The notes under the pieces are model-generated. The model searched no databases, was not told the origin of the DNA, and saw nothing but the letters and a program-made list of their open reading frames with translations. Positions 1-27,534 of a stretch of DNA of 39,402 nucleotides are shown piece after piece (positions within the stretch are counted from its first letter, which is position 1; each line of letters opens with the position of its first letter). Both the position numbers and the translations under genes were made by a program. This DNA is from a virus (lineage: Duplodnaviria > Heunggongvirae > Uroviricota > Caudoviricetes): IMG/VR virus record IMGVR_UViG_2541047754_000004; one strand, given 5' to 3'.

Positions 1-555
1 TCATTTATCTCCCACCGGAAACCTCTTATACAAAGTCGATATGCCAACATCATAGATGATCGCTACCTTCAGGCGAGGAACTCCTGATGCAATTAATCGT
101 CCGGCCTGTGCCCATTGTTCTGGTGTAAGTTTGGGACGTCGTCCACCAATTCGTCCCTGTGCGCGAGCAGCTTCCAGTCCTGCTTTTGTTCGTTCAACAA
201 TCAGTTCACGTTCCATTTCAGCCAGGGCCCCCATCACATGAAAGAAAAAGCGCCCCATTGGGGTACTGGTATCAATTGAATCCGTCAGACTACGAAAGTT
301 GATGCCTCGTTCGCGCAACTCCTCCACCAGCACGACAAGATGCCGCATACTGCGCCCCAGTCGGTCCAGTTTCCAGACCACCAGCGTGTCACCTGCCGAT
401 AATGTCCTGAGCAGCTTTTTCAGTCCTGGTCTGTCGGACTTTGTACCGCTTATCTTGTCTTCAAAAATCAGCTCACATCCTGCACAGTTCAGCGCATTAC
501 GTTGTAGATCGGTATTCTGGTCATTTGTTGATACACGTACATAGCCAATAAGCAT
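1..555 (-). CDS. pin: Serine recombinase, DNA invertase of the Pin/Gin/Hin/Cin family
   Basis: 184 aa; N-terminal MLIGYVRVSTNDQ with catalytic Ser, GDTLVVWKLDRLGRS motif and C-terminal HTH; near-identical in length and sequence to e14 Pin as recalled; ATG at 553-555, stop at 1-3. Confidence 0.92.
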   Translation of the reverse strand: MLIGYVRVSTNDQNTDLQRNALNCAGCELIFEDKISGTKSDRPGLKKLLRTLSAGDTLVVWKLDRLGRSMRHLVVLVEELRERGINFRSLTDSIDTSTPMGRFFFHVMGALAEMERELIVERTKAGLEAARAQGRIGGRRPKLTPEQWAQAGRLIASGVPRLKVAIIYDVGISTLYKRFPVGDK

Positions 556-608
556 GTTAAATCCCCTGGTAAAAGCAGGAATGATGCCATTTGCTCGTTA
601 TTTCTGCA

Positions 609-634
609 TTTTCATAAACGTTGGTTTTGGAGAA
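609..634. repeat. Left inversion crossover site (gix/pix-like, 12-2-12 bp)
   Basis: TTTTCATAAACG-TT-GGTTTTGGAGAA; its reverse complement matches the site at 2355-2380 in 11 of 12 left half-site bases with identical AA core. Confidence 0.6.
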
Positions 635-919
635 GGTGCTCAAGGTATTAGGTTACCTGTCGTCTGGCCATCTGAGGGTGTGTCTCTTGGATTTACCATA
701 AGCAGCACCGTAATAGTGTTATCGAAGTCCCAGGCCTCTACATCATCGGACACTGCCTACTCAGTTAACGCGAATGTTTTTCCTTCGCTAACAACTGATG
801 CACCACGGCGTGCAATCATGCGTATTGTGCATCATGCACGAGCAGCGAACGGGGGGAGCATATGGCAGACCTGTCAGGCAGCAACATCTTTGGCGCATAT
901 AGGGGTGAAGTATTCATAA
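635..919 (+). other. Silent alternative tail-fibre C-terminal cassette, in frame with the constant part after inversion
   Basis: Reading frame continues from crossover site through GFGEGAQGIRLPVVW... to stop at 917-919; junction GEGA matches the junction in the expressed fibre; no own start needed. Confidence 0.45.
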
Positions 920-1209
920 GTACGTGTGCATGGGTAAACCGAATAGGTTGTAACATCAATACAACAGCCAAATATCTCAGGCATTCAGTACACCACTTGA
1001 TCATGGGGTGATAGTGAGAAAGGTGTTACATTCAAACTGCGATATGGAGCATCCAACATGAAAACAAAGGCTAACTCTGAACGGAAAATCTGCATGGATA
1101 TAGACTGGTCACCGTGCCGGAAAGGATGCGTTGGCTTTTTCTTAAGGCAAAAAAGTACGAATACACGGACAGGTTGACAGTATAAATTCCTGCTGTCGTA
1201 ATTCTGTTC

Positions 1210-1530
1210 ATGTGTATAACGCATCTTAAGCAGGGGGAAAAACTTCCGGCAAATGGAACAAAATTTACGTGTAACGGATGGATCTTTGTACGTCAACAGC
1301 GCCCTATGTTGAATGACTTACTCGAAAGTCGCTCAAGGCTTGAAGTGATTTGGATCGGTGCTGGTAACGGCTGCCATCTCACCATTTCACCGTTACAGCA
1401 CGGCGTTAAATCGGATTGTGTGAAACGGGGGAAATACACTTCCGCCCTGCACTTTCCCCCAGAAGACGCTGAAGGAGCACAGTGCTACATCAAGCATGAA
1501 GTAGCAATGGCCTTCTTCAGCGTGTTCTAG
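1210..1530 (+). CDS. Hypothetical small protein, alternative-orientation partner gene inside invertible segment
   Basis: 106 aa ORF; shares a T-x-CNG-x4-RP motif with the 115 aa minus-strand ORF at 1537-1884; would follow the alternative cassette after inversion. Confidence 0.4.
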   Translation: MCITHLKQGEKLPANGTKFTCNGWIFVRQQRPMLNDLLESRSRLEVIWIGAGNGCHLTISPLQHGVKSDCVKRGKYTSALHFPPEDAEGAQCYIKHEVAMAFFSVF

Positions 1531-1536
1531 CTCAAT

Positions 1537-1884
1537 TTACAGGGCGTACGTAACCTTAATCAGGTACACACCACCCGATTTAACGCCTGGCGGTATTGCT
1601 TTAATCCTGTCATGGCAGTCTTTAATGGCACCGCGACAATTGACAGTTGCAGTGACGTCACGTACGCGTGGGTCAACCGATATAGGGCGATGTTCATCTT
1701 TATAGACGCATCCGTTACATATGGTATCTGTCACACTTGCTGAAATGTGTTCGCCAGTGACCAGTTGAGTGGAACACACCAACAGCCTTCCGACGGCAGT
1801 AAAATATACATTAAACCAGTCCGCATATTCAGACTTTATTACCTCAAGCAATAACCAATAAATATCGCTTGGCACTGTGAGCAA
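1537..1884 (-). CDS. Hypothetical small protein downstream of expressed tail-fibre tip (possible fibre partner or chaperone)
   Basis: 115 aa ORF directly downstream of the fibre gene on the same strand; Cys-rich; paralogous motif with ORF 1210-1530. Confidence 0.45.
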   Translation of the reverse strand: MLTVPSDIYWLLLEVIKSEYADWFNVYFTAVGRLLVCSTQLVTGEHISASVTDTICNGCVYKDEHRPISVDPRVRDVTATVNCRGAIKDCHDRIKAIPPGVKSGGVYLIKVTYAL

Positions 1885-2123
1885 TCCATATTCGTCCTAG
1901 ATTTCGATCCTCTGTTCGACTTCGTCATCAAGGTGAAAGCTCCATTTAGAAGTCTTTCTGTTACAAAATTCTGACCATTTCCTCATCATCTGGCCACATA
2001 CTTGATGCCTCAAATTTCTCGTTCTTGGACTGATGTAACAACCCATTCAGTTTAGCCATCCCCGCGCACTTATCGATAACCACCCCCTATTATGGCCACA
2101 TTTATTGCTCCCTGACATCCTAG

Positions 2124-2705
2124 TCATGCTCGCCCCCCTGTTAATGATTTTGTATGATGAAAAACCGGCATAATAGCTGGCCGTGCTTTAGCTAATGCCA
2201 CAGTACCGATCTCTTTCCAGTGCATTGGGATATCATTGGCAGTGATTGTAACCGCCTGGGGGATCATAAAGAGTATTCCAGAGGTGCCATTGAGTAAGGC
2301 ATCTGGCATACGGGCGGTTAGCCTTCCGAACGGAAAGCTAATACAGGTAGCACCTTCTCCCAAACCAAGGTTTTCGAGAGCCGTTTTCACCGTGCCATCC
2401 GATTTGATATCGCCAAACGGATTCTTGCGGCTCAGGTATTCAACAGCAAACCCCGATCCCAGCAATTCAACAAAACCGGGCAGATCACCATTATCAAGCA
2501 CATCCCGTTGCGTTTTATCACTTACAAACTGGGCCAGAGCTGCAGCAATAAAGCTGGCCTGCCGAATAACCTTATTGACTTGCGCACTGGATGCTTTCCC
2601 TGCTGTAAATCCGGATATAAGCGCAGGCAACGCTTCCCATTCCTCCTGCGACATAACATTGGCATTTCGATCAGTTGCAAACGCTTTAAAGTCATTTTTC
2701 GCCAT
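2124..2705 (-). CDS. Tail fibre protein, constant N-terminus plus currently expressed variable C-terminal tip
   Basis: [28 protein letters not shown]-terminus typical of enterobacterial prophage tail fibres; ATGA overlap with upstream gene at 2705; crossover site lies inside the ORF at 2355-2380. Confidence 0.8.
2355..2380. repeat. Right inversion crossover site (gix/pix-like) inside tail-fibre ORF
   Basis: TTCTCCCAAACC-AA-GGTTTTCGAGAG, inverted relative to site at 609-634. Confidence 0.6.
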
Positions 2706-3385
2706 CAGATTAATACTCCCCATGCCCCTACATCAAAACCACTGATGAATTCGTTATCCATATCAAAACCAAAAAATTTAGAGCCTTCCGATGGAGTTTC
2801 CACCGAAGGTGTTTCAATGCCCCCCGCCCATACCCCGGCGGCTTTTACTGTTAGATACCCCTGTTTAATTGCCGCAATTAACTCACGCGATACATCTGAA
2901 ATATCAGTATCAGGAAAGACCCAGACCGATATCGTCATGTCCTGGTTATCGACTATCTGCATTCGCAGCCCGGATCCTGCTGTTGCCGCGTCAAGAATTG
3001 CCGGAAGCGAATCATTCCGTCCGTCCCAGTTATTAATCGCAATCTTCGCTTTAAGAATGACACGATAAGTTTCATCGCTGAGATACATGTATCCTGAATC
3101 AGGATCGTATGGTCCCTGCCATACCCCCTGATCATATCCAAGCCCGTCGGTATCCCAGCTGAAATAGACACCTGAGATAGGCTGGCTGACAACACGGCTA
3201 CGTCCGATCCACAATCCAAGAATGTCAAGTTGCACACCAACCGCAGAGTCAATATCAAATGCAGTAATCAGCCCTCTGGTGGCAGCCGCAACATCAATAA
3301 GTGGCCGGGTCATCAGATCAACATGCGCAAGAAATTTAGGTTTGGTGGCGTGGTAGTTCGTGATTAGTTCGGTGTATTTGCTCAT
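2705..3385 (-). CDS. Tail or baseplate protein (position of P2 gpI)
   Basis: 226 aa; sits between baseplate J-like gene and tail fibre; overlapping stop/start with neighbours. Confidence 0.65.
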
Positions 3386-4581
3386 GACTCCACCGTTATA
3401 ACGATATTTTCCGGGGTACAGGACGTAGATTCGTTGTATCTGATATCAATGTTTGATGACGACAAAGCCCCCGGGGATTTCCCAATCGTCAGTTCCTGAA
3501 TATCGTAATAGCGTGCATTCCCGCCACTCACCACGCCAAGATTCGCCGGTGAGTAAATGCGACTTAAAAGGACCGAATCACCAATCATCAGACTATTGAT
3601 ATAGTCGGAAATAGCCTGCTGGATCTGCTGCCCTATCTGTGAGGTATAACCCGTAAAAACTTTTAATTTAATCCGGGCGTAAACAGGCACATCACTGGAA
3701 CGCGAGAATTTGATTACATGGGGATTGCCGTATTTATCCGGAACCGTAACGGATGTTGTACCGTGAGTGGCTGTCCCCTGGCCTTTATTTCCTCTGATAG
3801 CCTGAGCAATATCCGTCACATCACCGCCATCCACAATTACAGCAACAGAGTGTGGCGGTAACCCGTTACCGTCCTCCGAACCAGTATCGTTTTCATAGAG
3901 TTTGTGGCGGGTTACACCGGTAACATTAGAAACAGCACCATCCAGTGCTTCAAATGGGGTTATTGATGGCAACGCAACACTTTGCGACTGGCGGATACGT
4001 AACTCCGCATCAGTTTCTGCTGGAGTGCCTACAGTAGCTGCAGCAGGATTGGTTACCGAAACCCAGCCACGGGTTGGCGTATTAATTTCAGTGATAGTTC
4101 CAGCCAGCGCCGCCACTGCACCACTGACAGAACATTTTGCGGTCACCATCACTGTACCATCCACGCCGACCACCACTGAAGCAGGCAAACGCCATATCAC
4201 ATTATTACTGTCTTTCACGCTGCCATTAATGATGGTTGTTCCGGCAGTTCCTGTAAGAAGCAAATCAACCGTAGAATTCGTCGCGCCTTTACGTGAAATA
4301 CCATTTATTTTCACGTTACTGGTCAGTGCAGCCCCATAGCCGGTTGCCGGTGAAAAACAGTTGTAGACAGTTATCGCCATATTATTGGCATCATGAATCG
4401 CCAGCGCCATCAGAGCCACCATCTGGCCGTCTTTGCTGTCCGGTTCGAGGTAGGCATCACTGCCATAAATCTGCTGAAAATAGCTAATCAGGGTGCTGAG
4501 TATCGTCTGATAATCAGGCGCACTGATCCCCTCCGCGGTTACCTTTGCAGATAAACCGAGAGAATCAAGGTTCAGAGCCAT
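3382..4581 (-). CDS. Baseplate J-like protein
   Basis: 399 aa; position and size match the baseplate J family in a V-W-J-I-H order. Confidence 0.8.
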   Translation of the reverse strand: MALNLDSLGLSAKVTAEGISAPDYQTILSTLISYFQQIYGSDAYLEPDSKDGQMVALMALAIHDANNMAITVYNCFSPATGYGAALTSNVKINGISRKGATNSTVDLLLTGTAGTTIINGSVKDSNNVIWRLPASVVVGVDGTVMVTAKCSVSGAVAALAGTITEINTPTRGWVSVTNPAAATVGTPAETDAELRIRQSQSVALPSITPFEALDGAVSNVTGVTRHKLYENDTGSEDGNGLPPHSVAVIVDGGDVTDIAQAIRGNKGQGTATHGTTSVTVPDKYGNPHVIKFSRSSDVPVYARIKLKVFTGYTSQIGQQIQQAISDYINSLMIGDSVLLSRIYSPANLGVVSGGNARYYDIQELTIGKSPGALSSSNIDIRYNESTSCTPENIVITVES

Positions 4582-24230: not shown

Positions 24231-24418
24231 GGAACCACCTGCCCCCACCTGGAACCACCTTTTCCTAACCTTTCCCTCAATCGACTTATATATATATATG
24301 GGGTTTCTAGTAGAAAGGCGGTTCCAGTGGTTCCAGTGGTTCCGCCCCGCTTGCCACAAGGTCTGCAAGGTGGAACCACCTTCTCTTTTAGGTGGTTCCG
24401 CGTGGTTCCAGCGGTTCC
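24231..24418. repeat. Iteron-like array of GGAACCACC / GGTGGTTCC / GGTTCCAGT repeats flanking a (TA)n tract; candidate replication origin
   Basis: At least nine GGWWCC-core copies in both orientations within about 190 bp, three tandem 9-bp units at 24319-24347, (TA)5 tract at about 24288-24299. Confidence 0.55.
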
Positions 24419-26574
24419 CAAACCTTGCATTTTTTCCCCCCAATTCGCCTTTGGGCACGCTTATACCCGCAATTTTGCAAAACATTACTAATTCGCATTT
24501 CTTCGCGTTTTCCGATGCGGTCAGGATTTAGCCCAATCGCATCACGCAAAACATCACTTGCGCGTAAAAATTCGCAATTTCGCGGAAGTTCATTAGTCAT
24601 CAGGTCTGGCGTGTCGAGCCATTTCTCTACCGTTTCAAGCCAAGCATCCTTGATGGTGTACTGTTCATGGACACTCGCTGCCAGTTGTTCAGCCTCACGG
24701 AACTGGATACCCCCCAGACGCTGAAACACCTCACGAGCCTCAGCCCAAAGTAAAAGTAGATCTCTTTTTATCGCTTTCACGTCGACTTTCGACACTTCCA
24801 CGGGGAGCCAGCGACGGTTACCAGTCTTGTCCGCAAGGAATTCGTCCTCATTGGTGGTACCAACGAACACCAGGCGACGAGGAAACTGGGTGGCGAACTC
24901 CCGGTATTTCGGGATCCAGTTTTCGTGAGTACGCGTCACAAACGCTTTGATTGACTCCAGCTCTTTGGTATTAAGTCCGCGCAGTTCACCAATCTCTGCC
25001 ACCAGCCGACCACGCATTTTTCGAGCGAGATCATCGTCTTTTTCGGCAAAAGAGATTTCAGTAAAAAACGCAGGATCAGGGCTCAGTGCCTCCACTCCGG
25101 AAGACTTACCGCAGCCCTGCGGACCAACGAGGATCGGCACCATATCCGCTTTGATGCCTGGCTCCAGTACTCGCCCCGCCAACGCGGTCCACATGTACAT
25201 AGACACCGCACGGGTATAAGGCGTGTCGGCTGTACCGAAGTGCGTATGGTAGAAACATTCGATGCGCGGCACGCCATCCCACTCCAGTCCGTTCAGCCAG
25301 GTGATCGCTGAATCGAATGGTTGTTCATCGGCTGCAAGTAACACCACATCGCGAATAAGTTCACGACCAACAGGTTTAAATCCCCGCTTTTCCATCGTGA
25401 TGCGCAGGCGCGCATAATCCGCATCGGTGAATGCCCGCCATTGTCCGGATCCTGCAGGGGCAAACATGATTTCGTCGCGGAACTGGTCAAAGCGAATATC
25501 GATGTCCACAAAATCAGGGCGTACTACTGCTTTGGCTGCGTTGCTGATTGTTGCCTCGATACGCCCCCATTTATCACGCTCGAAAGCAGGCAGCGGTAAA
25601 GGTTCCGCCACTTCGGTGCTGGTCAGATCTTCGAAATCGTCGTTGCGGATCCCGATGGCATTAAGGAAATCTCCGTCATCACGATGCGCACAACTGGCAT
25701 GCAGGCATTTAAAATGCCCCTGCTCAAAGCCCGCGGTTCCCGCAGGAAAATAAACTGTGCTTGTTGGATCGCCCCCGCTACTGTGGCCGTCTTCAAACGG
25801 ACAGCGGATATATCGTTCACCATTTGCGCCATCCAGCAGCGTCCAGCCATTGGCATCAAGATATTCAGCTGTATCATCCGTCGCGCCGGGCGTGAATGCT
25901 GATCGGTCGCGCATCTTCGTGTTGCCCGCTTCGGTGGTTACCGACACAGGGAGTTGTTCAGCCAGGCGCTGCCACAGCGTTTCAAGCTGCTCACCAGTAA
26001 TAGCCGGAGGTTCATCCGGCAAACCGCCGTCCCATTCAATACGCGCGCCGCTGCTGTGCGTACCGCAGGCAACGAACTGCTGCCCGTTCGCCAGCAACTC
26101 GATAATGCCCATATCCCCCGCCAGGCGATGGATACGCTTACGGAAATCACCATCAACGGCCAGCAGATACAGACACTTATTACTGTTTGCTCGCCAGCGT
26201 CGCGGCGGCAACTCACCCAGAAGTTGCACAAGCGTTTTGCGAATATCTGCCTGAATGTCTTCATCTTCGCTATCACAGTCCAGCGCCAGCCAGCCATGGC
26301 CTGTACGCACGCAGATGCCATAATCCGGTTCATTCGACCAGCGGGCAAAATCATGCTCAGTAACAACATGCCCGGTCCATTGAGCAATACCGGTGACCTG
26401 GCGGTCCCGGTTATAGCGACTCGGCGTCTTACCCAACGCTTTCAGTTTACTATCAGGGGATATGGTCGCACTGGGGTTACATACAACTGGGAGAAGATGA
26501 TCAGTTCTCCCCAATACCAGGTCGAAATGAAACCACTCATCAGGCGTAGCTCCCCATGGTTTGCTATCGGACAT
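24388..26574 (-). CDS. Replication protein: primase-like N-terminus fused to VirE/D5-type P-loop NTPase
   Basis: 728 aa; Walker A VGPQGCGKSS, Walker B-like and NRRWLPV motif; Cys/His cluster CPFEDGH...HFKCLHASCAH; acidic DCDSEDED in N-terminal domain. Confidence 0.82.
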   Translation of the reverse strand: MSDSKPWGATPDEWFHFDLVLGRTDHLLPVVCNPSATISPDSKLKALGKTPSRYNRDRQVTGIAQWTGHVVTEHDFARWSNEPDYGICVRTGHGWLALDCDSEDEDIQADIRKTLVQLLGELPPRRWRANSNKCLYLLAVDGDFRKRIHRLAGDMGIIELLANGQQFVACGTHSSGARIEWDGGLPDEPPAITGEQLETLWQRLAEQLPVSVTTEAGNTKMRDRSAFTPGATDDTAEYLDANGWTLLDGANGERYIRCPFEDGHSSGGDPTSTVYFPAGTAGFEQGHFKCLHASCAHRDDGDFLNAIGIRNDDFEDLTSTEVAEPLPLPAFERDKWGRIEATISNAAKAVVRPDFVDIDIRFDQFRDEIMFAPAGSGQWRAFTDADYARLRITMEKRGFKPVGRELIRDVVLLAADEQPFDSAITWLNGLEWDGVPRIECFYHTHFGTADTPYTRAVSMYMWTALAGRVLEPGIKADMVPILVGPQGCGKSSGVEALSPDPAFFTEISFAEKDDDLARKMRGRLVAEIGELRGLNTKELESIKAFVTRTHENWIPKYREFATQFPRRLVFVGTTNEDEFLADKTGNRRWLPVEVSKVDVKAIKRDLLLLWAEAREVFQRLGGIQFREAEQLAASVHEQYTIKDAWLETVEKWLDTPDLMTNELPRNCEFLRASDVLRDAIGLNPDRIGKREEMRISNVLQNCGYKRAQRRIGGKKCKVWEPLEPRGTT

Positions 26575-26577
26575 GGG

Positions 26578-26790
26578 TTAAGCCTTTTTATCGTTTTGTG
26601 AGCCATACAACAGCCAATTAGGGTCGCAATCCAATGCTATAGACATTTCAAGAAGATAACGTGGCCGAGCAATAACACCACTTTCAATTCTGTTTATTGC
26701 CTGCTGGCTCACTCCTGTGAGCTCAGCCAACGTAACTTGCGTCATTTTGAGTTCTTTACGTCGTTCTTTTACTCGGGTCGCTAAGGTCAT
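26578..26790 (-). CDS. Cro-like HTH regulator (XRE family)
   Basis: About 70 aa from ATG at 26790 with GAGGTG upstream (ORF track extends to TTG at 26808); HTH LAELTGVSQQAINRIESG. Confidence 0.75.
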   Translation of the reverse strand: MTLATRVKERRKELKMTQVTLAELTGVSQQAINRIESGVIARPRYLLEMSIALDCDPNWLLYGSQNDKKA

Positions 26791-26829
26791 TGCTTTCACC
26801 TCATACAATTTTAGTGGTATTTAGCAACA

Positions 26830-26864
26830 ACAAACGAGGTTTGTCAAATACAACAAAAATTGTT
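26830..26864. promoter_or_regulatory. Putative operator palindromes in cI/cro divergent region
   Basis: ACAAAC-GAG-GTTTGT (26830-26844) and AACAA-AAA-TTGTT (26852-26864). Confidence 0.45.
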
Positions 26865-26910
26865 TTTAATGTGGGGATACACATTAATACAACCCAGAAG
26901 GACTAATCCC

Positions 26911-27534
26911 ATGTCTCTCGCAGCCCGTTTTAAAGCACGTCGTTTGGAATTAGGAATGACTCAAGTGGAAGTAGCGAATTCTGCAGGGGTTAGCCAACAA
27001 TCCATAGAATCCATCGAAAGTGGACGAACCAGAAAGCCACGCAATCTTCTGGATCTGGCTAAGGCCTTGAAATGTAGCCCAGACTGGCTACTGAACGGTA
27101 AAAATATTATGCCTCTCGCGGAGATAAGTACCAGACGCATACCTATATTAAGTTACGTTCAGGCAGGAGAGCTTACAGAAGCAAGAGACATAACAGATCT
27201 GACAGGGGAATTTGAATATATTTTGGCAGACTCTGACATTCCAGAAACATGCTTCGCATTACGTATCGATGGCGACAGCATGCAACCAGAGTTTAAAGAA
27301 GGAGACATTGTTATCATCGATCCTGATCTATGTCCTGCACCAGGGGAGTTTGTTGTCGCCAAAAACGACGGTCACGAAGCTACATTTAAAAAATACCGTC
27401 CATTAGGAATCGGCATCGACGACTTTGAATTAATCCCCCTAAATCCTGATTACCCTATTTTTCGTAGTGCAGATATGAACTTACAGATCATAGGTGTAAT
27501 GATCGAACACCGTATTTACCGCCGTAAACGTTAG
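26911..27534 (+). CDS. CI-like repressor, N-terminal HTH plus LexA-type S24 autopeptidase domain
   Basis: 207 aa from ATG at 26911 (AGAAGGA upstream); HTH QVEVANSAGVSQQSIESIESG; DGDSMQP catalytic Ser motif and downstream Lys. Confidence 0.88.
   Translation: MSLAARFKARRLELGMTQVEVANSAGVSQQSIESIESGRTRKPRNLLDLAKALKCSPDWLLNGKNIMPLAEISTRRIPILSYVQAGELTEARDITDLTGEFEYILADSDIPETCFALRIDGDSMQPEFKEGDIVIIDPDLCPAPGEFVVAKNDGHEATFKKYRPLGIGIDDFELIPLNPDYPIFRSADMNLQIIGVMIEHRIYRRKR

Follow-up and report, generated by a model that had tools for sequence, protein, structure and literature searches.

We analysed a 39,402-nucleotide stretch of DNA from a Caudoviricetes virus (IMG/VR record IMGVR_UViG_2541047754_000004; the window), one end of which carries a DNA invertase and a tail-fibre gene. 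With very high confidence, we conclude that this end holds an ordinary e14/Pin tail-fibre switch of an E. coli prophage and that the deposited interior of its invertible segment is an in-register random merge of both orientations. An earlier note, made from the letters alone, had proposed a compact, atypical host-range cassette here. This was not borne out, the interior being a 50:50 per-base mosaic of the two orientations of an ordinary cassette. The same note's Pin-type invertase and its crossover sites, placed for an in-frame swap of the fibre tip, were supported.

A Pin-type invertase and paired crossover sites

The pin gene (1..555, minus strand) encodes a 184-amino-acid serine DNA invertase of the Gin/Hin/Cin/Pin family. 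Its product carries the features that define such enzymes: an N-terminal resolvase domain (Pfam Resolvase, 1.3e-51), a catalytic serine near positions 9–10 (Ser9, which the sequence places within the MLIGYVRVS / YVRVS motif) and a C-terminal helix-turn-helix (HTH_7, 7.6e-11). It matches the PHROG DNA invertase family (6e-96), and solved Gin structures ranked first in a PDB search (3UJ3 and 4M6F, 1e-92 to 1e-94 over residues 1-181; 4.5e-94 for 3UJ3). Together with identity at 178 of 184 residues (97%) to PinE of the K-12 e14 element, these matches confirm the Pin-type assignment made in the earlier note. In the Gin, Cin and Pin systems, the Fis-dependent recombinational enhancer acts in cis and lies in the 5′ part of the invertase gene. 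Judging from the 97% protein identity to e14 pinE, the pin gene here likely contains a Fis enhancer too.

Two 26-bp crossover sites bracket the segment. The pin-adjoining site (609..634) reads TTTTCATAAACG TT GGTTTTGGAGAA, with its core dinucleotide at 621-622; the fibre-gene site (2355..2380) reads, as its reverse complement, CTCTCGAAAACC TT GGTTTGGGAGAA, with its core at 2367-2368. The plus strand thus carries TT at the first core and AA at the second, so that both sites share the central dinucleotide expected of an inverted Din-family pair. Compared directly, 609-634 and the reverse complement of 2355-2380 agree at 20 of 26 positions, and on the inner side of the sites the match runs on for 6 more bp (GGTGCT). 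A default inverted-repeat search missed the pair, the longest exact seed being too short; no further site of like quality occurs elsewhere in the 39.4-kb window. The claim of inverted 26-bp sites with identical cores is therefore sound. In K-12 e14, the pin-proximal site matches 609-634 at 25/26 positions and the stfP-internal site matches 2355-2380 at 26/26; the gix and hix sites share 17-21 of 26. The two sites stand 1746 bp apart, a distance equal in two E. coli reference loci.

Within the minus-strand fibre ORF (2124-2723), the right-hand site codes for the ...ENLGLGEGA junction. On the plus strand, the frame that crosses the left-hand site gives NVGFGEGA, which is in frame with NLGLGEGA, so that both site frames read ...G(L/F)GEGA and an inversion would join the constant N-terminus in frame to an alternative C-terminus, as had been claimed. 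A site within the fibre gene and in-frame exchange of its C-terminus are among the marks of an invertible fibre host-range cassette.

Outside the segment the sequence is genuine. The constant N-terminal part of the fibre (2369..2705, minus strand; MAKNDF...ENLGLGEGA, about 124 amino acids; alternative upstream ATG at 2723) accounts for the matches of the ORF to PHROG tail fibre families (8e-66 and 2e-49), which cover residues 1-130 only. From 2400 onward, DNA identity to E. coli loci is 99-100%. Upstream of the fibre gene stand genuine baseplate genes (2705..4581, minus strand), assigned by Pfam as a DUF2612 wedge protein (2705-3385) and Baseplate_J (3382-4581). They share 99% amino-acid identity with a reference locus (L002), with 1/1/19 mismatches at the three codon positions; across the flanking genes the counts (1/1/19 and 4/1/31) fall mostly on the third position. 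These flanks recur at 95-100% identity in thousands of E. coli genomes.

A mosaic of two orientations between the sites

The invertible segment (623..2366) is different in kind. When 640-2349 was aligned in register with its own reverse complement, 60.7% of positions were identical. The axis of this self-complementarity, 1494.5, is the exact midpoint between the sites, and other axes reached at most 30% (median 25%). Simulated coin-flip mosaics of a sequence and its inverse gave a self reverse-complement identity of 0.610 +/- 0.014.

We compared the interior (S) with a natural parent cassette (P) of the same 1746-bp site spacing, locus L001 of NZ_CP148570. S equals P at 62% of positions and the reverse complement of P at 60%, and it equals one or the other at 99.0-99.2%; the same 'either' score was 0.44 in shifted registers and 0.72 for a copy of the parent with 38% random substitutions. 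At informative positions (628-2361) the choice of orientation looks random: 684 bases are forward and 655 reverse (ratio 0.51), a runs test gives z=-0.78, no base is preferred and mirrored positions are independent. Hypermutation of a DGR-like or deaminase-like kind was considered and rejected, the choice of substitution showing no base preference. The mosaic limits, 628 and 2361, are no more than 7 bp away from the crossover dinucleotides, which indicates that the superimposed sequences are exactly the two products of Pin recombination.

Of 1772 positions, only 18 differ from L001 in both orientations. Strain differences are their simplest explanation, because the true parent is absent from the collections searched: among complete E. 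coli genomes, no better parent scored above 99.0%. No complete E. coli genome carries the interior itself at >65% identity, and exact 45-mers of the scrambled interior had no match in IMG/VR, GTDB representative genomes or JGI metagenomes.

How would such a merge arise? The sequenced culture of E. coli HVH 112, the strain from which the record derives, most likely held both orientations. To the assembler these would have formed a 'bubble' of two equally long paths, which it would have collapsed to ambiguities at single bases and then settled arbitrarily. ALLPATHS/Arachne may treat bubbles of equal length in this way, picking at random among the bases of each IUPAC code once the bubble is flattened. 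A consensus from long reads or a pileup normally yields runs or indels rather than a perfect in-register coin-flip, and we accordingly offer the exact software step as a hypothesis. Molecules of the inverted orientation probably existed in the culture, because the mosaic is most simply a superposition of the two; indirectly, the artefact suggests that the switch was flipping there.

The two orientations might instead have come from two prophage regions, or two pin-fibre junctions, fixed in opposite orientations in one genome and collapsed by the assembler. Many E. coli carry the cassette and the pin-fibre flanks at several places, up to 6-7 per genome, and the ratio of 0.51 carries no information on the proportions of reads if the ambiguities were settled by chance. 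Such a collapse requires two copies whose flanks are identical on both sides, however, and it has to be set against an intact invertase gene and the roughly 50% within-culture switching that is normal for such segments (PMC4134206). We consider it improbable.

Far less credible still is natural decay, in which pseudogenised tips and tfa genes drifted to ~60% identity. It would be in keeping with the ungapped identity of about 60-64% between the interior and normal cassettes, with the 20 stops (4+3+12+1) in the homologous frames and with mismatches spread over codon positions without bias (60/62/81, 83/79/76 and 57/54/60). Yet drift does not yield 61% in-register self reverse-complementarity, nor bases of which 99% are those of P or RC(P), when a randomly substituted copy reaches 0.72. 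Despite ~40% substitutions over 1.7 kb, indels are nearly zero (two single-base, compensating gaps against L002), and the boundary is sharp at the crossover cores, beside flanks of 99-100% identity. The chance that decay produced this sequence is negligible.

Tips and chaperones of the deconvolved cassette

Projecting the parent onto the segment gives the positions of four coding regions. On the plus strand, a silent, Collar-like alternative tip (635..1078; 140 amino acids after GEGA in the parent, 4 stops in the scrambled sequence) is followed by a Caudo_TAP tail-fibre assembly gene (1075..1671; 197-198 amino acids in the parent, 3 stops here). On the minus strand lie a second Caudo_TAP assembly gene (1643..2071; 142 amino acids in the parent, 12 stops here) and a gp53-like C-terminal tip (2073..2354; 86 amino acids after GEGA in the parent, within a 210-amino-acid fibre), likewise scrambled; a spurious stop ends the fibre ORF early, at 2124. 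The L001 cassette encodes both Caudo_TAP chaperones (3.7e-27 and 6.6e-33) and the Gp53-like_C tip. In the deposited window Pfam detects no Caudo_TAP, and the homologous frames hold the 3 and 12 stops given above. When the parent cassette is inserted at the locus, intact fibres of 216 and 270 amino acids result, or 210 and 264 counted from MAKNDF, in line with natural fibre relatives of 210 or 264-289 amino acids. As reconstructed from the parent, then, the locus is predicted to be a standard cassette with fibres of 210 or 264 amino acids, each tip paired with its own Caudo_TAP chaperone.

Pin would recombine the two inverted 26-bp sites, one of them within the tail-fibre gene, and would thereby join the constant fibre N-terminus either to the gp53-like tip, with its 142-amino-acid Tfa, or to the Collar-like tip, with its 197-amino-acid Tfa. 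The short tips, small Cys-containing ORFs and shared motif that had suggested something unusual are all products of scrambling and of the mirror symmetry that it creates. The ORFs listed in the earlier note are present mechanically, but they are set in scrambled sequence and are not real genes. The proposed tip at 635-919 is the first part of the Collar-like tip position, the small ORF at 1210-1530 falls within the position of the longer Caudo_TAP gene, and that at 1537-1884 overlaps the position of the shorter one. The tip lengths of 75 and 95 amino acids are fixed by stops found only in the scrambled sequence, the parental values being 86 and 140, and the partners said to be unlike Tfa stand where the parent has two Caudo_TAP chaperones of the classical kind (142 and 197 amino acids). 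Two copies of a shared motif do exist, though the pattern is (T)CNG-x7-RP rather than T-x-CNG-x4-RP. The copies are mirrored about the segment centre (CNG at 1270-1278 and 1711-1719, RP at 1300-1305 and 1684-1689), and this exact mirroring of coordinates makes the shared CNG...RP a by-product of the symmetry.

A genuine compact cassette that swaps tips of 75-95 amino acids with novel, small Cys-containing, non-Tfa partners has next to no chance of being right: its ORFs can be read, both small ones carry CNG...RP and neither they nor the tips find anything meaningful in Pfam or PHROG, but a coin-flip mix of classical cassette orientations explains 99% of the sequence, the two motifs mirror each other exactly in position, stops fill the homologous Tfa frames and, among about 15 billion proteins, no other clusters with the product.

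The public record and its spurious proteins

The window comes from the NCBI E. coli HVH 112 draft assembly GCA_000457575.1 (scaffold KE699821.1), to which it is identical over the 5705 bases compared. A synthetic or benchmark-made sequence was rejected as an origin, since the same DNA and protein stand in NCBI. The garbled fibre of 193 amino acids is deposited as EQQ87507.1/WP_021529131.1 and forms a one-member cluster; the 199-amino-acid ORF from the upstream ATG has no database entry, only the 193-amino-acid version being recorded. At least two spurious proteins have come from the scrambled stretch, this fibre and a 74-amino-acid product. KE699821.1 thus carries 1.7 kb that match no molecule and that mimic, for a reader with only the sequence, a novel compact host-range module. 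An in-register self reverse-complement identity of ~0.6 between short inverted repeats serves as a test to tell such artefacts from real novelty.

Relation to known switches and wider meaning

The closest known system is Pin with the invertible P segment of the defective K-12 prophage e14 (pinE, stfP, tfaP, tfaE, stfE). Beyond the near-identical invertase (178/184) and sites (26/26 and 25/26), it places a crossover site at the same junction of a ~210-amino-acid fibre and keeps the same order of constant part, tip with tfa, inverted tfa with tip, and pin. It differs in site spacing (1827 bp in e14, 1746 bp here), in its fibre N-terminus and tip/tfa cassette alleles, and in its backbone (DUF2313 YmfQ in e14, the DUF2612 wedge here); the interior is scrambled only in the record studied here. 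Gin of the Mu G segment, Cin of the P1 C segment, Hin of Salmonella and Min of p15B are likewise small serine recombinases with a C-terminal helix-turn-helix that act on 26-bp inverted crossover sites with a 2-bp core. Gin, Cin and Min also exchange alternative tail-fibre C-termini with cognate chaperones. All four systems differ in fibre family and segment size, and Hin controls flagellin instead.

There is precedent for switching segments that disturb assemblies. In E. coli EC958, prophage fibre segments with 26-bp sites stand at ~50% in each orientation in culture, and they gave clusters of assembly discrepancies and spurious contigs (PMC4134206). With PacBio data the alternatives came out as contigs of their own and with 454 data as scattered substitutions and indels, whereas the HVH 112 record holds one base-by-base, in-register chimera. 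In the literature searched, we found the separate-contig case of EC958 and no description of the merged form.

The biology of this locus is the textbook e14/Pin tail-fibre switch, already known, and its atypical features are not real. More speculatively, in-register coin-flip mosaics might be a systematic by-product of one pipeline whenever cultures hold both orientations, a generalization that we regard as possible but doubtful. If it were true, a search of thousands of older public drafts for quasi-palindromic segments enclosed by short inverted repeats could yield a hidden record of actively switching invertible loci and, at the same time, junk singleton proteins of which databases could be purged.

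A Pin-type switch with an anomalous interior

The serine recombinase Pin (184 aa; 1–555, minus strand) matches Pfam Resolvase (1.3e-51) and HTH_7 (7.6e-11) as well as the PHROG 'DNA invertase' family (6e-96). Its closest solved structure is Gin invertase 3UJ3 (4.5e-94), and it shares 178 of 184 residues with PinE of the Escherichia coli K-12 prophage e14. By direct comparison, the crossover site at 609–634 agrees with the reverse complement of 2355–2380 at 20 of 26 positions, with the same central dinucleotide; agreement extends six bases further on the inner side, and no third site of comparable quality was found in the 39.4-kb window. A default repeat finder did not report this pair. The e14 crossover sites are identical to those of the window at 26/26 and 25/26 positions. 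The right site lies inside the minus-strand fibre ORF. Tail-fibre N-terminal families (PHROG, 8e-66) cover the first ~130 residues of this ORF, and DUF2612 and Baseplate_J genes precede it; ...G(L/F)GEGA is encoded in frame at both sites. An earlier note had proposed a Pin-type invertase, inverted 26-bp sites with identical cores and an in-frame swap of fibre tips. With the invertase, the sites and the in-frame position within the fibre ORF confirmed, this switch architecture at 1–2723 stands. Window position 1 is exactly the stop codon of pin, and the next gene call past pin on the scaffold is a 215-aa ORF without a Pfam match.

Thousands of E. coli genomes carry pin, the fibre's constant part and the baseplate genes at 95–100% identity. 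For the 1.7 kb between the sites, no match in complete E. coli genomes exceeded ~65% identity, and exact 45-mer searches did not find this sequence in IMG/VR, GTDB representative genomes or JGI metagenomes. Its weak matches are ordinary 'tail fibre tip + tail fibre assembly' cassettes, equal in length in query and subject. Alignment to one such E. coli locus (NZ_AP045177) was almost gapless at 55–70% identity over 640–2350, outside which identity rose abruptly to 90–100%. Within the homologous frames of the interior, mismatches were level across codon positions (60/62/81, 83/79/76 and 57/54/60) and stop codons numbered 4, 3, 12 and 1; genuine neighbour genes showed the usual third-position excess (1/1/19 and 4/1/31). 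Substitution of ~40% with essentially no indels is unlike natural decay.

Otherwise the window consists of a prophage common in E. coli, with 97–98% identity to many genomes over ~24 kb. A divergent pair within 26578–27534 encodes a 76-aa Cro-like HTH_3 protein (minus strand) and a 224-aa CI/LexA-like HTH_3 + Peptidase_S24 repressor (plus strand). The short gap separating the two genes forms a local palindrome (axis 26850.5; 130-bp arms, 54% self-complementary), probably a sign of immunity operators; a repeat tool detected no discrete inverted repeat in this gap. Adjoining this region is a 728-aa VapE-like/DUF5906 protein of primase-helicase type (24388–26574, minus strand).

The interior merges both orientations of an ordinary cassette

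Compared in register with its own reverse complement, 640–2349 is 60.7% identical, about an axis (1494.5) that is the exact midpoint of the two crossover sites; other axes gave ~25% (maximum 30%). The site-to-site spacing of 1746 bp is identical in the cassettes of two E. coli loci. We compared this part of the window in register with one of these, P (NZ_CP148570), and its reverse complement, RC(P). Position by position, it agreed with P in 62% of cases and with RC(P) in 60%; at 99.0% of positions (99.2% within the interior) it agreed with at least one of them. As controls, shifted registers reached either-match fractions of 0.44 (maximum 0.48), and a copy of P carrying 38% random substitutions reached 0.72 (maximum 0.75). 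Across the 1,339 informative positions, P was followed at 684 and RC(P) at 655, with no base preference; the run count showed no departure from independence (z=-0.78), and choices at mirrored positions were uncorrelated. A simulated coin-flip mosaic had a self reverse-complement identity of 0.610 ± 0.014, against the observed 0.607. The interior is thus a column-wise merge of two equal-length alternatives. Its limits, 628 and 2361, lie at most 7 bp from the crossover dinucleotides, so the superimposed sequences are exactly the two products of Pin recombination. We know of no biological process that interleaves two unrelated sequences base by base.

At 628 and 2361, the inner half-sites show a T/G difference, swapped relative to NZ_AP045177. 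Exchange of inner half-sites on inversion would be consistent with this swap, and two coin-flip choices within the mosaic would explain it just as well.

These results recast what the earlier note had read as a compact, atypical host-range cassette, which is an assembly artefact: a mosaic of both orientations of an ordinary cassette. The stop codons that cut the short tips off at 75 and 95 aa were made by the scramble, the real tips being 86 and 140 aa, and the two small Cys-containing ORFs proposed as partners lie within scrambled tfa genes. These two ORFs run in mirrored frames, and the residues of their shared motif are exact coordinate mirrors of each other (CNG at 1270–1278 and 1711–1719; RP at 1300–1305 and 1684–1689). 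Read in mirrored register, the two ORFs agree at 39 of 107 residues, a likeness expected of a sequence 61% self-complementary about its centre.

The deconvolved locus is a relative of the e14 P segment

We deconvolved the locus by inserting the parent cassette between the window's own crossover sites. In one orientation the fibre has 216 aa (210 aa from MAKNDF, the start of the constant part) and ends in a Gp53-like_C tip; the gene behind it encodes a Caudo_TAP chaperone of 142 aa. In the other, the fibre has 270 aa (264 aa counted from MAKNDF) and ends in a Collar-like tip, and the Caudo_TAP chaperone encoded behind it has 197–198 aa. In the protein collection, natural fibre relatives measure 210 aa or 264–289 aa. 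Judged from sequence, the locus is closely related to the invertible P segment of e14: the e14 fibre StfP and the window fibre have a 28-residue junction in common, but the window carries another tip/chaperone allele pair. Its biology is already known; such segments are of a long-known kind, for which a study of E. coli EC958 cites Sandmeier 1994 as review (PMC4134206).

The tip/tfa cassette at 1397–3168 of NZ_CP148570.1 has the same 1746-bp spacing and shares 99% identity with the deconvolved parent. Its surroundings are those of another prophage, P2-like (tail protein I, tail sheath), where the recombinase gene is a different one and the fibre constant part is annotated as a broken pseudogene. 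This setting suggests that unrelated prophages exchange invertible cassettes as whole units.

The scramble resides in the deposited record

In the EC958 study, fibre segments of E. coli prophages that carry 26-bp sites could be ~50% in each orientation in culture, and such mixed segments could disturb assemblies (PMC4134206). In an assembly graph, a culture holding both orientations would appear as a bubble whose two branches are equally long; reduced to per-base ambiguities, each settled at random, these branches would yield the observed pattern. The ALLPATHS/Arachne code base, used in Broad Institute drafts of that period, may have been capable of such random per-base resolution. Two fixed copies in opposite orientation, collapsed by assembly, are a minor alternative to this probable mixed-culture origin.

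The 193-aa product of the shortened 'fibre' ORF is encoded on scaffold KE699821.1 of NCBI assembly GCA_000457575.1. Over the 5,705 bases compared, this scaffold and the window do not differ at any position; the scramble therefore resides in the deposited record. This product (2124–2705, minus strand; EQQ87507.1/WP_021529131.1, 'hypothetical protein G773_02566 [Escherichia coli HVH 112 (4-5987253)]') forms a one-member cluster among ~15 billion proteins. Together with a 74-aa public gene call (1306–1530, plus strand, converted from scaffold coordinates), it is junk from scrambled DNA that has now spread into NCBI nr and RefSeq. The case is useful as a caution and offers a simple diagnostic.
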